From Candidatus Omnitrophota bacterium (lineage in GTDB: Bacteria; Omnitrophota; Omnitrophia; Omnitrophales; Aquincolibacteriaceae), in the NCBI GenBank assembly GCA_003140935.1, contig PLLJ01000042.1, positions 10,144 through 74,143 of the forward strand: a stretch of DNA of 64,000 nt, in the 5' to 3' direction. Under the pieces are notes generated by a model. That model was given only the letters and a program-made list of their open reading frames with translations. It was not told the DNA's origin and made no database searches. Shown here piece after piece: positions 40,989 to 58,632 of this stretch. A program made the translations under genes and the position numbers. Every line of letters begins with the position of its first letter. Position 1 is the first letter of the stretch.

Positions 40989-41366
40989 ATGCCTGAGGAA
41001 AAAAGAAAGATCCTTTTTGTCGATGATGAACCGGACCAGATCCTGATGATCTCCCTCAGGCTGCAGAAAAGCGGTTATGCGGTCGTCTCCGCCGCGGATG
41101 GAGAAGAGGGTTTGAAGAAAGCCTTTGAAGAAAAGCCCGCTCTTATTCTGTTGGACATGCTCATGCCAGGCATAGACGGTTTTGAGGTTTGTCGCCGGCT
41201 TCGTAAAAATCCCGTCACAAAAAACATTCCGGTCATCGCCACCACGGCGGCGGGCGTCGACGACATCGAATTCCAGTGCCGTGCGGCCGGGGCCGACGAT
41301 TGCATCCGGAAACCCTACGATTCCGCAGACCTTCTCACGAAAATCCGCCAACTGCTTAAGGCATGA
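40989..41366 (+). CDS. Single-domain response regulator (receiver only)
   Basis: ILFVDDEPD ... LILLDMLMPGIDG ... VIATTA ... K. Starts 5 nt after the kinase stop. Confidence 0.85.
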   Translation: MPEEKRKILFVDDEPDQILMISLRLQKSGYAVVSAADGEEGLKKAFEEKPALILLDMLMPGIDGFEVCRRLRKNPVTKNIPVIATTAAGVDDIEFQCRAAGADDCIRKPYDSADLLTKIRQLLKA

Positions 41367-41403
41367 CCCCACAAATCATGATCAAAGGGAAAGGCATCCT
41401 TCT

Positions 41404-42120
41404 GTGAGATCGTTGAACAGCAAACAGATCATTGATGCCTTGACTAAGATCAGCGATGCGGTCATTTCGGACCTGTATTTGGAAGAGATCCTTAAATTGA
41501 TCGTGACGGTGACCGCAGAGGTCATGCATTCCAAGATATGTTCCCTCATGCTCCTGGAAAAGTCCACCAATGAGCTAGTCGTCAAAGCGACCCAATCCGT
41601 CAGTGAGTTCTATAACAAAAAACCCAACGCAAAGCTCGGGGAAGGCATCGCCGGAAGGGCGGCCCAGCTTGGAGAACCGATCACCGTTCTTGATGTGCGG
41701 AAGGACAAACGCTATCTCAATCAAGCGATCGCCAAAAAAGAGAACCTTTGTTCTCTCTTAAGCATGCCGCTTATTTACAAGGGAAATGTCATCGGAGTGC
41801 TGAACTGTTATACGGCCAAGCCGCGTCCCTTTAGCCCAAACGAGATACGCGTCATCAAATCGATCGCGAACCAGGCCGCGATCGTCATTGAGAACTTCCG
41901 GTTGGTCGTAGAATCGCAAGTGATCCAGGAAGAACTGGAATCAAGGAAGGCGATTGAGCGCGCCAAAGGCATTTTGATGAAAAGGGAGAACTTAAGCGAA
42001 CAGGGGGCTTATAAGCTCATCCGTAAGTACAGCATGGATAAACGGAAGAGCATGAGGGAGGTCTCGGAGGCCATCCTTTTAAGCGCGGAGATGCAGAGAT
42101 TTTCATCCGGCAAAGAATGA
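41404..42120 (+). CDS. GAF-ANTAR protein (RNA-binding antiterminator with a GAF sensor domain); probable GTG start
   Basis: The GAF region (IVTVTAEVMHSKICSLMLLEK...NCYTAKPRPFSPNEIRVIKSIANQAAIVIEN) is followed by an ANTAR signature (ESRKAIERAKGILMKRENLSEQGAYKLIRKYSMDKRKSMREVSEAIL). The track ORF starts further upstream, inside the receiver gene in a different frame; GTG at 41404 follows a GGGAAAGG RBS. Confidence 0.75.
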   Translation: MRSLNSKQIIDALTKISDAVISDLYLEEILKLIVTVTAEVMHSKICSLMLLEKSTNELVVKATQSVSEFYNKKPNAKLGEGIAGRAAQLGEPITVLDVRKDKRYLNQAIAKKENLCSLLSMPLIYKGNVIGVLNCYTAKPRPFSPNEIRVIKSIANQAAIVIENFRLVVESQVIQEELESRKAIERAKGILMKRENLSEQGAYKLIRKYSMDKRKSMREVSEAILLSAEMQRFSSGKE

Positions 42121-42230: not shown

Positions 42231-42377
42231 TTTCAGTCCAGCAACACAGGATAAAGACGTCCTTCTTGGCAGGAGTTTTTGCCGGGAAGGATTTTTTTTT
42301 GGCAAAAGTGCTTTAGCACCGTAAACCAGGGGCGGGGACATTTGGGTCCTCAAAACATCAAAAAAGGGGTGAAAACA

Positions 42378-43742
42378 ATGGCAAAAACAGGGGAAAGTTC
42401 AGCGGAAAAAGAGATCAACGCGTTCATGAAAAAAGTGAGTGCCAGAAATCCCGGTGAAAAGGAATTTCTTCAAGCGGTCCGGGAAGTGGTGGATTCCGTA
42501 ACGCCTTTTATCGAAAAACACCCCAGGTATAGAAATGCGAAGATCCTGGAAAGAATGGTCGAGCCGGAGCGTGTGATCATGTTCCGGGTTCCCTGGCTTG
42601 ATGACAAGGGAGAGATCCAGATCAATCGTGGTTTCCGTATTCAGATGAACAGCGCGATCGGTCCCTACAAGGGCGGTATTCGCCTTCACCCGAGTGTCAA
42701 TCTCGGCATCCTGAAGTTTTTAGCGTTCGAACAAGTGTTCAAGAACAGCCTCACCACGCTGCCCATGGGCGGGGCGAAGGGCGGTTCAGATTTTGATCCC
42801 AAAGGGAAATCCGATAACGAGGTCATGAAGTTCTGTCAGAGTTTCATGCTGGAGCTCTCCCGTCATATCGGACCGGATACGGACGTTCCGGCCGGCGATA
42901 TCGGCGTGGGTGGCCGCGAGATCGGTTTTATGTTCGGCCAGTACAAGAGAATCCGTAATGAATTCACCGGCGTTCTGACCGGAAAGGCCCTGAGTTGGGG
43001 TGGCAGTCTTATCCGTCCCGAGGCCACCGGCTATGGCTGCGTTTATTTCGTCGAAGAAATGATGAAGACGAGAAAAATGTCCCTGGCAGGGAAGACCTGC
43101 GTTGTTTCCGGTTCGGGGAACGTCGCGCAGTATACCGTGGAAAAACTTAATGAGCTTGGCGCCAAAGTCGTCACCTTGTCGGATTCGGACGGTTACATCT
43201 ATGACAAAAAAGGCATTGACGCGAAAAAATTGCAGTTCGTCATGGAGCTCAAAAACGTAAAGCGCGGACGCATCAAGGAGTATGCGGACGAATTCGGCTG
43301 CGAATATGTGGCCGGTCAAAGACCGTGGAAAGTCGAGTGCGATGTGGCTTTTCCGAGCGCCACGCAGAACGAGATCAGCGGGAACGACGCAAAGGCCCTC
43401 GTCAAGAACGGTTGTATCGCGATCGGCGAAGGCGCCAACATGCCGACCACGCCGGAAGGCATCGAAGTATTCCAGAAGGCAAAGATCCTCTATGCCCCCG
43501 GCAAGGCGGCGAATGCCGGCGGGGTAGCGACTTCGGGTCTGGAAATGAGCCAGAACAGCATGAGGCTTCGCTGGTCCCGCAAGGAAGTCGATGAAAAACT
43601 GCACGGGATCATGGTCTCGATCCACGAGAGCTGCGTGAAATACGGCAAGGAAGACGCGAAGTATATCAACTACGTCAACGGCGCCAACATCGCGGGGTTC
43701 GTGAAAGTTGCGGATGCCATGATTGATCAAGGCTTGGTCTAG
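42378..43742 (+). CDS. gdhA: NADP-specific glutamate dehydrogenase
   Basis: The Glu/Leu/Phe/Val dehydrogenase active-site region (LPMGGAKGGSDFDPKGKSDNEV) and a Rossmann GSGNVAQY. RBS GGGGTGA before the ATG at 42378. The track ORF begins earlier, in the leader. Confidence 0.9.
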   Translation: MAKTGESSAEKEINAFMKKVSARNPGEKEFLQAVREVVDSVTPFIEKHPRYRNAKILERMVEPERVIMFRVPWLDDKGEIQINRGFRIQMNSAIGPYKGGIRLHPSVNLGILKFLAFEQVFKNSLTTLPMGGAKGGSDFDPKGKSDNEVMKFCQSFMLELSRHIGPDTDVPAGDIGVGGREIGFMFGQYKRIRNEFTGVLTGKALSWGGSLIRPEATGYGCVYFVEEMMKTRKMSLAGKTCVVSGSGNVAQYTVEKLNELGAKVVTLSDSDGYIYDKKGIDAKKLQFVMELKNVKRGRIKEYADEFGCEYVAGQRPWKVECDVAFPSATQNEISGNDAKALVKNGCIAIGEGANMPTTPEGIEVFQKAKILYAPGKAANAGGVATSGLEMSQNSMRLRWSRKEVDEKLHGIMVSIHESCVKYGKEDAKYINYVNGANIAGFVKVADAMIDQGLV

Positions 43743-52726: not shown

Positions 52727-53221
52727 GTGGAAACCTTGGATGCCCTTGCGAAGCGCGCCAGCGTTCGCGATTATATGAACCAGCCAGTTCCGAAGGACAT
52801 GCTGGAAAAGCTCGTGGATGCGGGACGGCGTGCGCCGAGCGCCCGGGCGGTCGAGCCGTGGGAATTCGTGGTGATCATCGGCCGTGCGATGCTCGATAAG
52901 CTCGCCGGGATCATCAGCACGGGGGTGTTCCTCAAACAAGCGACGGCCTGCATTGTGGTTTTTTGCCAGGATACAAAATATTATCTCGAGGACGGCTCCG
53001 CGGCGACCGAGAACATTCTCCTCGCGGCAACGGACCTGGGGCTCGGCACTTGTTGGGTCGCGGGTGATAAAAAAGAGTATTGTGAAGAAGTCTCGAGGCT
53101 TCTCGGAGCGCCGGAACACTTAAAACTCATCAGTCTGATCTCGGTCGGATGGGCCGTACGTGAACCTAAACAACACAAACGCCGCACCCTCTCTGAAGTT
53201 CTGCACTGGGAAAAGATTTAA
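52727..53221 (+). CDS. Nitroreductase-family flavoprotein; GTG start assumed after GGAGG
   Basis: The LDALAKRASVRDY N-terminal motif, the nitroreductase fold, and C-terminal ...LISVGWAV. The upstream part of the track ORF has no homology signal. Confidence 0.65.
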   Translation: METLDALAKRASVRDYMNQPVPKDMLEKLVDAGRRAPSARAVEPWEFVVIIGRAMLDKLAGIISTGVFLKQATACIVVFCQDTKYYLEDGSAATENILLAATDLGLGTCWVAGDKKEYCEEVSRLLGAPEHLKLISLISVGWAVREPKQHKRRTLSEVLHWEKI

Positions 53222-53243
53222 CCGTGATGACCCTGGTTGCCGT

Positions 53244-54452
53244 ATGAACATTGATCTTGTAAGAAAAATCGACCTCTGGTTCGGGGTTCCCCTCTGTTTT
53301 TTAGTAAGTGTCTTTAACCGCATCGTGATTTTTTTTCGCCGTACCCGCCCGGCCCCTCGGCCTATCCGCAATATCCTTTTCATCAAGTTCTCCGAATTAG
53401 GAGCCATTATTTTATCGTTTCCACTCATGGCCCGTTTAAAGCGGGAATATCCCGATGCTCAGTTCTATTTTTTGACTTTCAAGAAAAATCAAGAAATTTT
53501 CCGTTTTATGGAAGGGATCATTCCTGAAAAAAATTTATACGTGATTCGCGAAAGTCCTTTGGGATTTGTCTTCGATATTTTGACGGCGATCATTCGGTTG
53601 CGCCACGAGGATATGGATTTCATTTTTGACCTCGAATTTTTTTCCCGTATTTCCGCGCTTTTAACGTATTTCATCCACGCGCCGAAACGGATAGGATTTG
53701 ACCGTTATACGTTTGAGGGGCTCTATCGCGGGAGTCTTATGACCCACAGGGTGTCCTACAACCCTTTGCTCCATGTCACCAAGAACTTTTTAGCTCTCTG
53801 CCAAGACATTCAAAAACCGGCGAAGACAAGTCCCGAACTTTTTTTTCCGACAAACCCTAAGGACCTTGTTTTTCCGAGGTACACTCCCGACAAAGAGGTG
53901 CGTGAAAGGCTTCTTCGCAAGCTCAAAGAACAGAAAAAAATTATTTTGTGGGAGAAAGTATTTCTTATTAATCCCGGCGAGGGAATGCTTCCTTTAAGAG
54001 AATGGCCTCTCGAGCGTTTTATCGAATTGACCCGGTTGATCCTCCAGGACACGTTGGCATGTGTGATCCTTGTCGGAGTGGACGGTGTAGCAGGGAAAGC
54101 CGACCGGATGGTCGAGGCCGTTGCCGACCCGCGATGCTTCAGTCTCACGGGTCAAACTTCGTTGGAAGAGTTATTAGAGCTTTTTTCGATGTCTCACGTT
54201 CTCATCTCCAATGATTGCGGTCTCGCTCATATAGCGATGCTTACCTCCCTCAAAATCATCACTCTTTTCGGACCCGAGAGCCCGAAGATCTTTGGCCCCC
54301 TGACAGAGTGTAGTCATGTGGTCTACGCCGACTGGCCTTGTTCACCTTGTTTGTCCGCTTTGAATCATCGCGACTCCGCTTGTCGTGACAACATGTGCCT
54401 TAAATCCATTACCGTGGCTGATATCCTTCAGCTGATTCCAGGAAGATCTTAA
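53244..54452 (+). CDS. Glycosyltransferase family 9 (heptosyltransferase-like)
   Basis: The GT9 C-terminal pattern: a GxxxG Rossmann region, VISNDCGLAHIAMLTSLKIITLFGPESP, then CSPC. About 400 aa. Confidence 0.7.
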   Translation: MNIDLVRKIDLWFGVPLCFLVSVFNRIVIFFRRTRPAPRPIRNILFIKFSELGAIILSFPLMARLKREYPDAQFYFLTFKKNQEIFRFMEGIIPEKNLYVIRESPLGFVFDILTAIIRLRHEDMDFIFDLEFFSRISALLTYFIHAPKRIGFDRYTFEGLYRGSLMTHRVSYNPLLHVTKNFLALCQDIQKPAKTSPELFFPTNPKDLVFPRYTPDKEVRERLLRKLKEQKKIILWEKVFLINPGEGMLPLREWPLERFIELTRLILQDTLACVILVGVDGVAGKADRMVEAVADPRCFSLTGQTSLEELLELFSMSHVLISNDCGLAHIAMLTSLKIITLFGPESPKIFGPLTECSHVVYADWPCSPCLSALNHRDSACRDNMCLKSITVADILQLIPGRS

Positions 54453-54453
54453 G

Positions 54454-56160
54454 GTGTCCATTTTAAATAAAGCCTCCCTCGCTCCTAGTATCCCTGTTCT
54501 TGTAGCTTTGCTAGTCCTGATCCCGGCCCTGGTGTACATGGGTTCGCTTCAAAATGGGTTTATTTGGGATGACGATTTAGTGATCACGCATAACGACTTT
54601 GTGAAGTCCTGGAAAAATTTCCCTATGATTTTCACCAAAGCCTACCTGAGTCCTTTTAGTCCGCTCGAAGAGGGAGTCTATCCCGGTTCTGGCGAAACAA
54701 CCTACCGTCCCGTCGTAACCATGTCTTATTTTTTGGACTATGCGATATGGAAAATGAACCCTTTTGGATACCATCTCACCAACTTGGCATGGCATTTATT
54801 GAATGTTTTGCTTTTATTTTTCTTTGCGGGGCTGTTGTTAAAAAAGTGGTGGGGCGCCTTTTGGGTTGCATTGCTTTTTGCCGTTCATCCGGTCAATTCA
54901 GAGGCCGTTAGCGTCATATCCTTTCGGGAAGATCTTCTTGTTTTTTTCTTTTACATCGGAACATGGATCCTCTTCATCCTCAAAGATCGCGCCCCAGGCA
55001 AGCAACAAGGGGTCTTCTCCCTTGCATCAGCAAGCTGTTTCTTTCTCGCGCTTTTTTCCAAAGAAATGGCCATTACCTTGCCGATCACCCTGATCGCGTA
55101 TGACTACTTTTTCACATTCGGTCAAAAGTGGAAAGAACTCGTTTCGCAAGCCCGGTCGCGATACGGTCTTTATTTTCTGATCGTTTTTCTTTACCTGGGA
55201 GTGTGGTTTTATTTTAAGCAGGAAGGGCTCACAGCGTCTTATCCGTATCCGGGCGGGAGCTTCTATACGAACTTCCTGACCATGGCAAAAGTATTTGCTG
55301 TGTATCTCCAGTGGATCCTTTTCCCTTTTCGCGTTCATCCGACCTTGCAATCGACGTTTCCCCCTATCATGGCTCATTCCATTCTGGAACCGAAAGTGCT
55401 GTTTTCGATCGGAGTGATTTTCGCGTACGCTCTCACTGTCCTTATGTTAAGAAAGAAGAAAAGAGAAATATCTTTCGCGCTCTTATGGTTTTGCGTGGCC
55501 CTTTTGCCGGTCAGCAATCTCATCCCGATCGCATCGATCATAGCGAGCCGTTATTTGTATTTACCCCTCGCAGGTTTTTCGATGGCGATCGCGCTGTTTT
55601 TTTTGGAGATTTTCGAGCTTCGCGTTCCCCTGATTTCTGAAGCCTTTTGGAAAAGACTTGTCCTGGATTTTTCCATTATCGTATTAGCGCTCTTGAGTAT
55701 GATCACAGTACTTATGCATCCCATCTGGAAGAACAATATCTCTTTGTGGACAAAAATAAGTTCTGAGTATCCTCGCGATCCGGACTCGCATTTGAACCTG
55801 GCCTATTTTTGGGGAGAGCTCGGACGATTGGATCAGGCGATCCGTGAATATGAAATGGCGATACAACTGTATCCGGTATATCCTGTTGCGTACAACAAAT
55901 ATGGCGCCACACTCGGAAGTTTTGGGCATTATCAAAAAGCGTTAAAGCTTTTCAAGGAAGCGATCCGTCTCGATCCTCAGTCTGTTTGCGCCTATAACAA
56001 TCTCGGGGCAACTTATGCTAATCTGAAAAATTGGGGGGAGGCGGAGAAAGCGTGGCGACAGGCATTGGTGCTGAATCCCAACAACGGCGACGTGCAAAGA
56101 AATCTCAAAAAGCTCGAGGAGTTTTCCCCTTATCGAAAAAATGACGCAAAGATGCGATAA
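54454..56160 (+). CDS. Integral membrane GT39/PMT_2-like protein with C-terminal TPR repeats
   Basis: About 11 TM helices, then TPR-like repeats (AYFWGELGRLDQAIREYEMAIQLYP...AYNNLGATYANLKNWGEAEKAWRQALVLNP). GTG start 1 nt after the GT9 stop. Confidence 0.6.
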   Translation: MSILNKASLAPSIPVLVALLVLIPALVYMGSLQNGFIWDDDLVITHNDFVKSWKNFPMIFTKAYLSPFSPLEEGVYPGSGETTYRPVVTMSYFLDYAIWKMNPFGYHLTNLAWHLLNVLLLFFFAGLLLKKWWGAFWVALLFAVHPVNSEAVSVISFREDLLVFFFYIGTWILFILKDRAPGKQQGVFSLASASCFFLALFSKEMAITLPITLIAYDYFFTFGQKWKELVSQARSRYGLYFLIVFLYLGVWFYFKQEGLTASYPYPGGSFYTNFLTMAKVFAVYLQWILFPFRVHPTLQSTFPPIMAHSILEPKVLFSIGVIFAYALTVLMLRKKKREISFALLWFCVALLPVSNLIPIASIIASRYLYLPLAGFSMAIALFFLEIFELRVPLISEAFWKRLVLDFSIIVLALLSMITVLMHPIWKNNISLWTKISSEYPRDPDSHLNLAYFWGELGRLDQAIREYEMAIQLYPVYPVAYNKYGATLGSFGHYQKALKLFKEAIRLDPQSVCAYNNLGATYANLKNWGEAEKAWRQALVLNPNNGDVQRNLKKLEEFSPYRKNDAKMR

Positions 56161-56345
56161 GATATAAAATGCTATTTGCCTCAATGCGGCAGCATCCTTA
56201 AAAGCGGTCCTCCTTATAAAAAACTCATCCGAAATAAGATGCAAGATAGAATAATTTGACGTATAGTACGGCATCAAAAATGACGTTCTCCTCTGGGGCG
56301 CTTTGTCCCGGAGGGCGCGCAACATAACGAAGGAGATTCACCGTA

Positions 56346-56546
56346 ATGGCAAAAGGTAAAGTCAAGTGGTTCAATAATCAAAAAGGTTATGGATTCATCA
56401 CGCCTGAGAATGGCGCCGATGTGTTTGTCCATCACACTGCGATCCAGGGCGAAGGCTACAAGTCTTTGGAAGAAGGCCAGGCTGTGGAGTTTGAGATCAC
56501 CCAAGGTCCTAAGGGCGATCAGGCAGTCAACGTCGTCAAGATCTAA
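56346..56546 (+). CDS. Cold-shock protein (CspA family)
   Basis: [34 protein letters not shown] carries the RNP1 and RNP2 motifs. 66 aa. RBS AAGGAG. Confidence 0.9.
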
Positions 56547-56559
56547 AGGTCCGTAAAGT

Positions 56560-56596
56560 CCGGGGCCCGGTCTTAAAGCCGGGCCCCGGTTTTTTA
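56560..56596 (+). terminator. Rho-independent terminator after the csp gene
   Basis: An 11-bp perfect stem ccggggcccgg-tcttaaag-ccgggccccgg followed by tttttt. Confidence 0.8.
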
Positions 56597-56749
56597 GCAC
56601 CGTTTCACATTTGATTTTTAGGGGTAAACGGTGCAATACTGTTAACCCATGAAATCAAATGGAGAACAGTATTAGAGTCCAAGCTCTTCTTTTTATCCCG
56701 CCTGTAAGGTCGTGAGACTCCGTTTGTCGTTCCTTTGCCAACAGGCAAA
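56597..56749 (+). other. Structured RNA region upstream of typA. It has two hairpins with 9-bp stems (56597-56634 and 56635-56673) whose loops are complementary over 10 nt, and a third small hairpin (56734-56749).
   Basis: GCACCGTTT/AAACGGTGC and AATACTGTT/AACAGTATT. Loop 1 CATTTGATTT is the reverse complement of loop 2 AAATCAAATG. TTTGCC-aaca-GGCAAA. Confidence 0.35.
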
Positions 56750-56778
56750 CGTATGGGGGAAAATTTCACTGAGGATTT

Positions 56779-58632
56779 ATGCCGATCCAAAAAAGACGTA
56801 AAGATGTCCGGAATGTCGCTATTGTCGCTCACGTCGACCACGGAAAGACCACGCTCGTTGACGCCCTTTTAAAACAGAGCGGTGCCTACAAGTTCGAGGC
56901 TGGAGAATCTACCATTATGGATTCCAACGATCTGGAGCGCGAGCGCGGGATCACCATCTTTTCAAAGAACGCCTCGTTCCGTTATAAGGACGTGCAATTC
57001 AATATCGTGGACACACCCGGCCACGCCGATTTCGGAAGCGAAGTCGAGCGGATCCTCAAGATGGTCGACGGGGTCCTGCTCTTGGTCGATGCCTATGACG
57101 GGCCGATGCCTCAGACCAAATTTGTTTTAAAAAAATCCCTTGCCTTACATCTGAAACCGATCCTCGTGGTCAATAAAATAGACCGTCCGAATTGCCGGCC
57201 CCACGAAGTGATGGACATGACGTTCGATCTTTTTTGTGAGTTGAATGCCACGGACGAACAGCTGGATTTTCCCGTGGTGTATGCCTCGGGCCGGGAGGGA
57301 TGGGCTGCGCTGGACCTTGAAGACGAGCGGAAGGATATGACTCCGCTCCTTGAGACTATTTTGCATCGTGTCCTGCCGCCGATCGCGGATCCCGAACAGC
57401 CGTTCCAGATGCTTGTGACCATGCTTGATTATGATAATTATGTGGGGCGCATTGCGATCGGACGCATTGCCCACGGACAGATCCGTTACGGCGATCCCAT
57501 GGTCGTGGTGAAGCTTAACGGCGAGGTGATCCGCGGCAAAGTGACCAAGATCCTGAAGTACCAGGGGCTCCAGCGGGTCGAAGCTCAGGACGCGATGGCC
57601 GGGGATATTATTTCCATCAGCGGGATCGACGATGTAAAAGTGGGAGAAACGCTGGCTTCTCCGGACAAACCTGAGGCATTGCCGACCTTAAAGATCGACG
57701 AGCCTACGATCTCCATGAATTTCTCCCATAATACCAGCCCGCTTGCAGGTAAGGACGGCGGCCGGTTCCTGACCTCCCGTCATATCCGTGAACGGCTCAC
57801 GCATGAAGCAATGATGAATGTCGGGGTCAAAGTGGAAGAGGTGGAAGGCGGGGAACGTTTCAAGGTCTCCGGCCGCGGGGAACTGCATCTTGCGATCCTG
57901 ATCGAGACGATGCGCCGCGAAGGTTACGAACTGGAGGTTTCGCCGCCGAAAGTGATCTTGAAGACGGTCGAAGGAGAACTTTATGAGCCCGTGGAAGAAG
58001 TCACCATCGAAGTGGACCCCGGCTATCAGGGCTGGGTGATTGAAGCTTTGGGGAAGCGCCGGGCCGAGATGAAGCACATGAACATGAGTGCGGTGGGCGG
58101 GACGGTCCGCATGGAATTCCTTGTCGCGTCGCGAGCGCTCCTGGGTTTTCGCAATGAATTCATGGTCATGACGCGCGGGACGGGTATGATGTACCAGAAT
58201 TTTTTTGAATACCAGCCGTTCAAAGGCGATATGCCCGAGCGTCAGTCCGGCGTGCAGATATCCCAATTGGACGGAAAAGCGGTGGCCTATTCGCTTTGGG
58301 GCCTTCAGGAGCGCGGAGAGATCTTTGTCCAGCCGGGCTGTATCCTTTACGAAGGGATGATCATCGGCGTGAACAATAAGGGGCATGATCTTGTCGTGAA
58401 CGCGATCCGTGAAAAAAAGCAGACCAATATGCGTTCCTCCGGAGCCGATGAGGCGATCCAGCTGATCACGCCCCGGGAAATGACTCTAGAGTTTGCGCTG
58501 GAGTTCATCGAAGAGGACGAACTTGTGGAGATCACCCCGAAGAATATCCGGTTGCGGAAAAGGTATTTGACTGAAAACGAGCGTAAGGCTATGGGGCGGG
58601 TGGCCGTGGGCAAAAGGCTGGGTTCCTCCTAG
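56779..58632 (+). CDS. typA: Translational GTPase TypA/BipA
   Basis: G-domain RNVAIVAHVDHGKTTLVDALL, DTPGHADF, NKIDR. 617 aa with domain order matching BipA. RBS GAGGA. Confidence 0.9.
   Translation: MPIQKRRKDVRNVAIVAHVDHGKTTLVDALLKQSGAYKFEAGESTIMDSNDLERERGITIFSKNASFRYKDVQFNIVDTPGHADFGSEVERILKMVDGVLLLVDAYDGPMPQTKFVLKKSLALHLKPILVVNKIDRPNCRPHEVMDMTFDLFCELNATDEQLDFPVVYASGREGWAALDLEDERKDMTPLLETILHRVLPPIADPEQPFQMLVTMLDYDNYVGRIAIGRIAHGQIRYGDPMVVVKLNGEVIRGKVTKILKYQGLQRVEAQDAMAGDIISISGIDDVKVGETLASPDKPEALPTLKIDEPTISMNFSHNTSPLAGKDGGRFLTSRHIRERLTHEAMMNVGVKVEEVEGGERFKVSGRGELHLAILIETMRREGYELEVSPPKVILKTVEGELYEPVEEVTIEVDPGYQGWVIEALGKRRAEMKHMNMSAVGGTVRMEFLVASRALLGFRNEFMVMTRGTGMMYQNFFEYQPFKGDMPERQSGVQISQLDGKAVAYSLWGLQERGEIFVQPGCILYEGMIIGVNNKGHDLVVNAIREKKQTNMRSSGADEAIQLITPREMTLEFALEFIEEDELVEITPKNIRLRKRYLTENERKAMGRVAVGKRLGSS

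Follow-up and report, generated by a model that had tools for sequence, protein, structure and literature searches.

An unannotated element, probably a small palindromic insertion and not a temperature switch, between the csp and typA genes of an Omnitrophota genome

The stretch of Omnitrophota DNA analysed here (the window, 64 kb in length) carries between its csp and typA genes an unannotated 77-nt element (56597-56673) that is a candidate small palindromic intergenic insertion element and probably not a temperature switch. With moderate confidence, it is best read as two hairpin units in inverted orientation that form a dispensable palindromic insert, similar to a REPIN or MITE, at the T-tract of the csp terminator. 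According to this reading, the insert would be lodged at a TA inside the T-tract directly behind the terminator and the whole of it would be present in RNA only through read-through of the csp terminator, because it starts 1 nt past the T-run and is preceded by no promoter-like site. In such read-through RNA it would fold as two adjacent hairpins and any effect on typA would be passive, for example as a structural block or as a substrate of a double-strand RNase. We infer the mobility of the element, its transcription and any effect that it has on typA. The parts of the locus are as follows.

56346..56546, forward strand: csp, gene of a 66-aa cold-shock domain protein (open reading frame; PF00313, CSD)
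56560..56595, forward strand: csp intrinsic terminator (12-bp stem 56560-56589 with 11 GC pairs, T-run 56590-56595; called by the terminator scan and conserved in relatives)
56597..56634, forward strand: hairpin H1, one copy of a unit of ~38 nt (stem 56597-56605 / 56626-56634; the loop includes CATTTGATTT, 56608-56617)
56635..56673, forward strand: hairpin H2, the same unit in inverted orientation (outer stem 56635-56643 / 56665-56673; the loop includes AAATCAAATG, 56652-56661)
56647-56650 / 56659-56662, forward strand: predicted inner helix of H2 with the apical loop GAAAUCAA (56651-56658)
56599..56671, forward strand: alternative long imperfect hairpin, built from the loop-loop pairing together with GGGU/ACCC and AACGGUG/UACUGUU, which excludes H1 and H2
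56675..56778, forward strand: typA leader (small hairpin; conserved T-rich motif GCTCTTCTTTTTATCCCGCC; GAGGA as RBS directly 5' of the ATG)
56779..58632, forward strand: typA/bipA, gene of a 617-aa translational GTPase (open reading frame; Pfam GTP_EFTU, EFG_C and BipA_C; source name 'translational GTPase TypA')

Two adjacent hairpins with 9-bp stems directly after the csp terminator had been described in the earlier note, and the sequence and the repeat search found this description to be correct to the base. H1 is built from the arms GCACCGTTT (56597-56605) and AAACGGTGC (56626-56634), a perfect 9-bp stem enclosing a 20-nt loop, and H2 from the arms AATACTGTT (56635-56643) and AACAGTATT (56665-56673), a perfect 9-bp stem enclosing a 21-nt loop; in the repeat search both inverted repeats are 100% complementary, and the two hairpins abut. 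A 29-nt imperfect inverted repeat, 72% complementary, runs in addition across both loops and nearly to both ends of the element, that is, as terminal inverted repeats. Hairpins with a perfect stem of at least 9 bp and a loop of 3-30 nt were found at 22 sites in the window (36 matches by the hairpin script, which counts nested registers separately, compared with ~7 in shuffles), and H1 and H2 are the only sites that abut directly. Neither hairpin was called as an intrinsic terminator by the terminator scan and no T-run follows either one. In an Rfam scan of 55900-57100 with E-values up to 10, the element was overlapped only by noise far below the gathering scores (mir-588 at 21.6 bits, P31 at 20.8 bits and MIR8706 at 17.2 bits). 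A match to the Rfam cspA thermoregulator (RF01766; 60 bits, E 2e-14, gathering score 78) is located outside the element at 56246-56592, over the 5'UTR, coding sequence and terminator of csp, its score being owed largely to conserved coding sequence. The 232-nt spacer between csp and typA is identical in independent assemblies from six samples and, therefore, the element is not an assembly artefact.

The predicted fold of the 84-nt segment has an energy of -28.9 kcal/mol, compared with -12.3 +/- 2.5 kcal/mol for 200 dinucleotide shuffles (z = -6.7, 0/200). Comparative evidence on this structure came from csp-typA spacers of genome representatives and of contigs encoding identical or near-identical Csp and TypA. 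By its TypA relatives the host is a Candidatus Omnitrophota MAG, about 25 species-level relatives having a TypA 88-98% identical. The complete element is present in four lineages, namely the window, L017/L110, L011 and L125/L126, and a partial one in L019. The H1 stem changes from GCACCGTTT/AAACGGTGC to GTACCGCATG/CATGCGGTAC, with C:G replaced by U:A at position 2 and UUU/AAA by CAUG/CAUG, such compensatory changes being seen in L011, L019 and L125, while the H2 stem of L125 bears a double compensatory change from TT/AA to CG/CG. Pairs changed on both sides number three in H1 and two in H2 in alignment A1; in the unit alignment A2, made of ten hairpins, 94% of the cells are paired, five of the nine pairs show compensatory changes and the covariation score is reached by 0/500 shuffles. 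This pattern supports both stem-loops as real structures that were maintained in evolution, and two adjacent hairpins on the sense strand are the conserved conformation.

The loops behave otherwise. The exact reverse complementarity of CATTTGATTT in loop 1 and AAATCAAATG in loop 2, as claimed before, was confirmed, and in the window the duplex of both loops (-17.3 kcal/mol) lies far beyond that of shuffled loops (-5.9 +/- 2.3 kcal/mol; ~1 in 500). The energy of this duplex is nevertheless only -10.0 kcal/mol in L017, -4.2 kcal/mol in L011 (p 0.28) and -2.5 kcal/mol in L125 (p 0.93), which is no better than chance in the last two lineages, and no pair of the loop-loop helix is changed on both sides in alignment A1. 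The covariation check in orthologous spacers that the earlier note had proposed consequently divides its element in two: both stems show compensatory changes, but the loop-loop pairing shows none.

The match of the loops is explained by the origin of the element. H1 is homologous to the reverse complement of H2, the element being an inverted duplication of one unit of ~38 nt. A covariance model of the whole element, built from the four variants, matches each copy on the reverse strand (E 6e-8 to 1e-3), and in alignment A2 the H1 of the window and the reverse complement of its H2 share 24 of 39 positions, transitions making up 10 of the 15 differences. The consensus of the unit alignment reads TTA-[G/A]-Y-A-C-Y-G ... 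CATTT-GATTT-NA-GGG ... C-R-G-T-R-Y, with GYACYG.../...CRGTRC as the stem and CATTTGATTTTTAGGGGT as the form of the loop. The loops are thus complementary, and the element able to fold as one long hairpin, because H2 is a diverged reverse complement of H1; the loop complementarity was inherited by descent and not selected as a kissing pair. It is best kept where the copies are least diverged, in the window and L017, and eroded in L011 and L125.

The distribution of the element among relatives is that of a dispensable insert. It is cleanly absent from most close relatives with the csp-typA arrangement (L012, L122, L010, L016, L030, L008, L121, L124 and others), its carriers are scattered on the typA tree and sister taxa differ. 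In L012, L122 and L010, which lack the element, the typA leader is directly contiguous with the terminator. The empty site in L012/L122 reads ...CCGGTTTTTTA/GAGTCCCAGTTC... or ...TTTTTTA/AAGTCC... (TTTTTTA/GAGTCC in L012; the slash marks the site), and the filled site of the window reads TTTTT-TA-[GCACCG...CAGTAT]-TA-GAGTCC. Comparison of both sites fits a TA duplication, which no lineage but the window and L017 shows clearly; L125 is ambiguous in this respect and L011 has none. The Correia repeat-enclosed elements (CREE) of Neisseria duplicate specifically a TA dinucleotide.

The position of the element changes as well. In L125/L126 it is found behind a second terminator-like hairpin (GAAGAGCCAAGG...CCTTGGTTCTTTTATTTA) and directly 5' of the typA RBS, not behind the csp terminator. 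In L048, a distant member of the Omnitrophota, a covariance model built without this genome (R1) found a single unit, GTACCGAACACCCCTAAAATCAAATGAAACTCGGTAC, 64 nt past the 3' end of the typA open reading frame. The typA DNA of L048 and the window is ~68% identical and nothing aligns outside the coding region, yet the L048 unit is 72% identical to the H1 of the window, compared with 59% for the orthologous H1 of L011 and L125; this incongruence suggests that the unit either has moved between sites and genomes or is strongly constrained. L019 keeps H1 and has a deletion of the loop and 5' arm of H2. The lone hairpin of this locus (L019:2828-2864) has H1-like loop ends (CAT...AGGGTG), and its 8-nt centre AAATCAAA is the reverse complement of the centre of the window H1, TTTGATTT, and hence in H2 orientation, which looks like a template switch or a conversion between the two loops.

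Other small inserts occupy the same place in relatives, and the terminator T-tract is an insertion hot spot. In L014 a MITE-like element of ~95 nt (L014:2820-2914) is located in the same T-tract, with inverted ends AACAAAATG...CATTTTGTT and a flanking 9-bp duplication, TTTTTAGAG. Partial or complete copies of it were found at unrelated positions (L110:1069-1128, L024:653-684 and L019:241-272), so that the L014 element is truly multicopy in this Omnitrophota clade. Another insert of ~70-80 nt, designated X, is present at the same site in sister lineages of the element-bearing genomes (L055:2811-2896, L057:2839-2920, L009:3252-3333 and L118:~855-935). A flanking 13-nt repeat of the terminator 3' half (CCCYGGTTTTTTA) accompanies it in L055, L057 and L009; L118 carries an X-like variant in which the second T-run block is only similar. 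Insert X is a nested hairpin, AACCAGG..ACTGAG..CTCAGT..CCTGGTT, followed by a T-run; changes between L057 and L055 appear to be compensatory, and its inner stem and ATTG tail resemble the H2 stem.

Further copies of the 77-nt element itself were searched for at several scales. In the 64-kb window no second copy was found with blastn-short, with a fuzzy regex or with the covariance models R1 and R2 run with filters off. The same two models detected no copy beyond those adjoining typA in 627 kb of related loci, a biased sample since all loci were chosen via typA. The pattern AATACTGTT-N-TGAAAT-N-AACAGTATT retrieved, from a metagenome collection that does not hold the source contig, only L110, an L017-type csp-typA site, and one chance match within an open reading frame; in viral contigs a stem-anchored pattern and a loop pattern gave chance matches only. 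No transposase domain was detected in the 30 of the 41 long open reading frames of the window that were scanned against Pfam.

Among known systems, REPINs, which are inverted doublets of REP sequences (PMC3337134, PMC3116915), share with the element the arrangement of two inverted imperfect-palindrome units and the possibility of forming one long hairpin. The element is likewise extragenic and located just behind a gene terminator, and a singlet (L048) as well as a decayed copy (L019) occur. REPINs, on the other hand, number tens to hundreds per genome and go with a RAYT gene, whereas the element is present as one copy in 64 kb and no RAYT/Y1 transposase was found in the scanned open reading frames of the window. 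Its units abut without a spacer, its loops are long (~20 nt) and partly conserved, and no conserved GTAG-like 5' tetranucleotide was identified in it. In the CREE elements of Neisseria, inverted repeats form a hairpin in mRNA that is bound or cleaved by RNase III, and target duplication and strain-to-strain differences in insertion are described (PMC2649163). CREE and bacterial MITEs resemble the element in being small non-coding inserts with imperfect inverted repeats at their ends and a possible target-site duplication; as with CREE, it shows presence/absence polymorphism between strains and is placed between promoter and gene, so that it would be part of the mRNA. CREE differs in its length of 100-155 bp with a core, in its more than 100 copies per genome and in its documented promoter and IHF sites, compared with 77 nt and two repeat arms only, each arm being itself a hairpin, for the element. 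By analogy with CREE, RNA of the element may be, e.g., a substrate of RNase III.

The alternative that survives best, possible although doubtful, is a dedicated cis-acting RNA of typA: the read-through transcript of csp and typA would form a tandem hairpin, of which H2 (loop CCNNUGAAAUNNAAUGG) would be functional, by binding a protein, as a site of processing or as a stabiliser, and H1 an accessory copy. Besides the compensatory changes in both stems, the conservation of H2 speaks for it. The H2 of the window is identical to that of L011 at 35/39 positions (90%), compared with 23/39 (59%) for H1, and to that of L125 at 29/39 (74%). H2 is predicted to fold with an inner helix CCAU/AUGG and an apical GAAAUYNA loop, and a loop of the AAAUCAAA or AAAUUNAA type is kept on the sense strand of typA in every element-bearing lineage, the unit of L048 having the same loop orientation. 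Owing to G:U pairs, the sense strand is more stable than the antisense strand by 4-8.5 kcal/mol in every variant, and in L125 the module adjoins the typA RBS. Conservation of H2, sense-strand stability and the kept sense-strand loop are no less compatible with a functional RNA than with a selfish element. Against such a dedicated RNA stand its absence from most close relatives with the csp-typA arrangement, its variable position in the spacer, the deletion of H2 in L019, its placement after a strong terminator and the lack of a match to any Rfam family; moreover, since all loci were chosen via typA, the sampling itself accounts in part for the link to this gene.

A more elaborate form of this idea is unlikely. 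In Omnitrophota the unit of ~38 nt would be a structured RNA motif not described before and linked to typA, with the sense loop CCNNUGAAAUCAAAUG, kept between genomes with ~68% typA DNA identity, and its inverted second copy would make the element truly bistable in the window lineage, where the adjacent Csp RNA chaperone could resolve the fold in the cold and thereby couple csp read-through to typA expression.

The bistability invoked here is that of an RNA switch or thermometer, the role suggested by the earlier note, in which two kissing hairpins would interconvert with the long hairpin under the influence of temperature or of a Csp RNA chaperone and so control typA; this is decidedly unlikely. 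Part of its premise stood up to calculation: the RNAfold minimum-free-energy structure of the window element is one long imperfect hairpin (56599-56671) and not two hairpins, and with optimal inner pairs allowed the two hairpins and the long hairpin have energies of -27.4 vs -28.3 kcal/mol at 37 C and of -47.2 vs -48.7 kcal/mol at 10 C. The two mutually exclusive folds are thus predicted to be nearly isoenergetic in the window genome. Together with a loop complementarity far beyond chance, this favours a switch, as do the neighbours of the element, a cold-shock protein and TypA/BipA; Csp proteins of E. coli can act as antiterminators. In the other lineages, however, the long fold trails the two hairpins by 8 (L017), 19.7 (L011) and 15.3 (L125) kcal/mol, and the modelled bistability belongs to the window lineage only. 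Folding at different temperatures, which had been put forward as a check, gave a predicted ranking of the two folds that does not change from 4 to 45 C. The switch layout as such is further weakened by the loop-loop helix, in which no compensatory change is seen, which is at chance level in L011 and L125 and whose complementarity is explained by descent.

The position of the element is equally unfavourable to a thermometer for typA. The RBS and ATG of typA (~56770-56781) are about 100 nt past the end of the element at 56673, and the element neither contains nor pairs with the RBS; no conserved pairing between the two was found. It is placed after a strong terminator and is dispensable in close relatives, most of which lack it. 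Thermometers of the cspA 5'UTR, ROSE and fourU types resemble it as structured RNA near cold-shock genes and, in the window genome, by two alternative folds, but the element does not include or mask the SD/AUG, no temperature-dependent change of ranking is predicted and the alternative fold is not conserved. The comparative evidence, at the level of sequence and predicted structure, argues against a thermometer or Csp-responsive role as a conserved function.

Sequences around the element show features of their own. A promoter-like motif, RTGCAAG-N16-TATAGTA, is found upstream of csp (56240-56267, with TGCAAG at 56240-45 and TATAGT at 56262-67). The same motif occurs directly upstream of typA, followed by a similar 5'UTR, in L024, L027 and L046, where csp is not present; this suggests that typA may inherit a csp-type promoter and leader where csp is absent. 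The best-conserved piece of the typA leader (L012, L016-L019, L055, L125 and L127) is the pyrimidine-rich motif (G)TTCTTCTTTTT at 56690-56702. Cold-shock domain proteins prefer T-rich single strands like this one. In most relatives a GC-rich hairpin and a T-rich run are located directly 5' of the typA RBS (AGCCGGGGCYCGTGTCCCGGCTTTCTC in L009, L014, L057, L030, L121 and L124; GGGGACAGTCCC...GGGACTGTCCCCTTT in L013, L015, L020 and L022) and, thus, two or three terminator-like structures lie between csp and typA, an arrangement that would fit control of typA by read-through or antitermination. Upstream of csp, the window encodes a family-9 glycosyltransferase and a 568-aa TPR membrane protein (53160-56160). 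In L008-L011 and L121-L126 the ILVD and ODP-flavodoxin genes, present in the window too, are followed instead by genes of a nitroreductase and of a 144-aa protein; csp, typA and the PPIase gene stayed linked through a rearrangement of the locus. Elsewhere in the window, a gene of a GAF-ANTAR RNA-binding antiterminator (41182-42120) is located directly upstream of the glutamate dehydrogenase gene (42279-43742), with a 158-nt spacer.

A signal at the level of DNA is the least probable of the alternatives and very unlikely. It would be either a typA promoter at the junction of H1 and H2 (GGTRCAATACTG, which has TACAAT or TGnAATACT) or a palindromic operator to which a dimeric protein would bind. 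The junction CGGTRCAATACTG is invariant in 4/4 complete variants and largely kept in L019 (CGGTACAATA), a TTGATT hexamer is found 18 nt upstream of AATACT in the window, and a transcript from the junction would start with H2 as its 5'-terminal hairpin. The promoter scan, however, does not call the junction, the consensus match is 8/12 positions and the -35-like hexamer is lost in L017; conservation of the junction is explained by its being stem sequence, typA expression is still needed in relatives without the element, and the G:U pairs and the strand asymmetry point to RNA and not to duplex DNA.

Other candidates were rejected. A mini-ORF in the H2 loop (ATG AAA TCA AAT GGA GAA CAG TAT TAG) has ATG, GTG, TTG or CTG as its start across the variants, has no SD and loses its frame in L125. 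Pairing of the H2 loop with the typA start region (CAUGAAAUC with GAUUUAUG) is not conserved in L017 or L011, and spacing and loop sizes do not fit a LexA-box, an IHF site or an ANTAR dual-hexaloop.

Taken together, should the minority reading of a dedicated RNA be true, a csp-typA cold-response operon would have in the element a new RNA motif associated with typA. If the preferred reading of a dispensable palindromic insert holds, a switch-like layout of the order A-B-A'-C-B'-C' would arise for free from the inverted duplication of one hairpin, which calls for caution in the hunting of motifs from sequence only, and the element would document small palindromic insertion elements and a terminator-proximal hot spot for them in the poorly studied, uncultured Omnitrophota.
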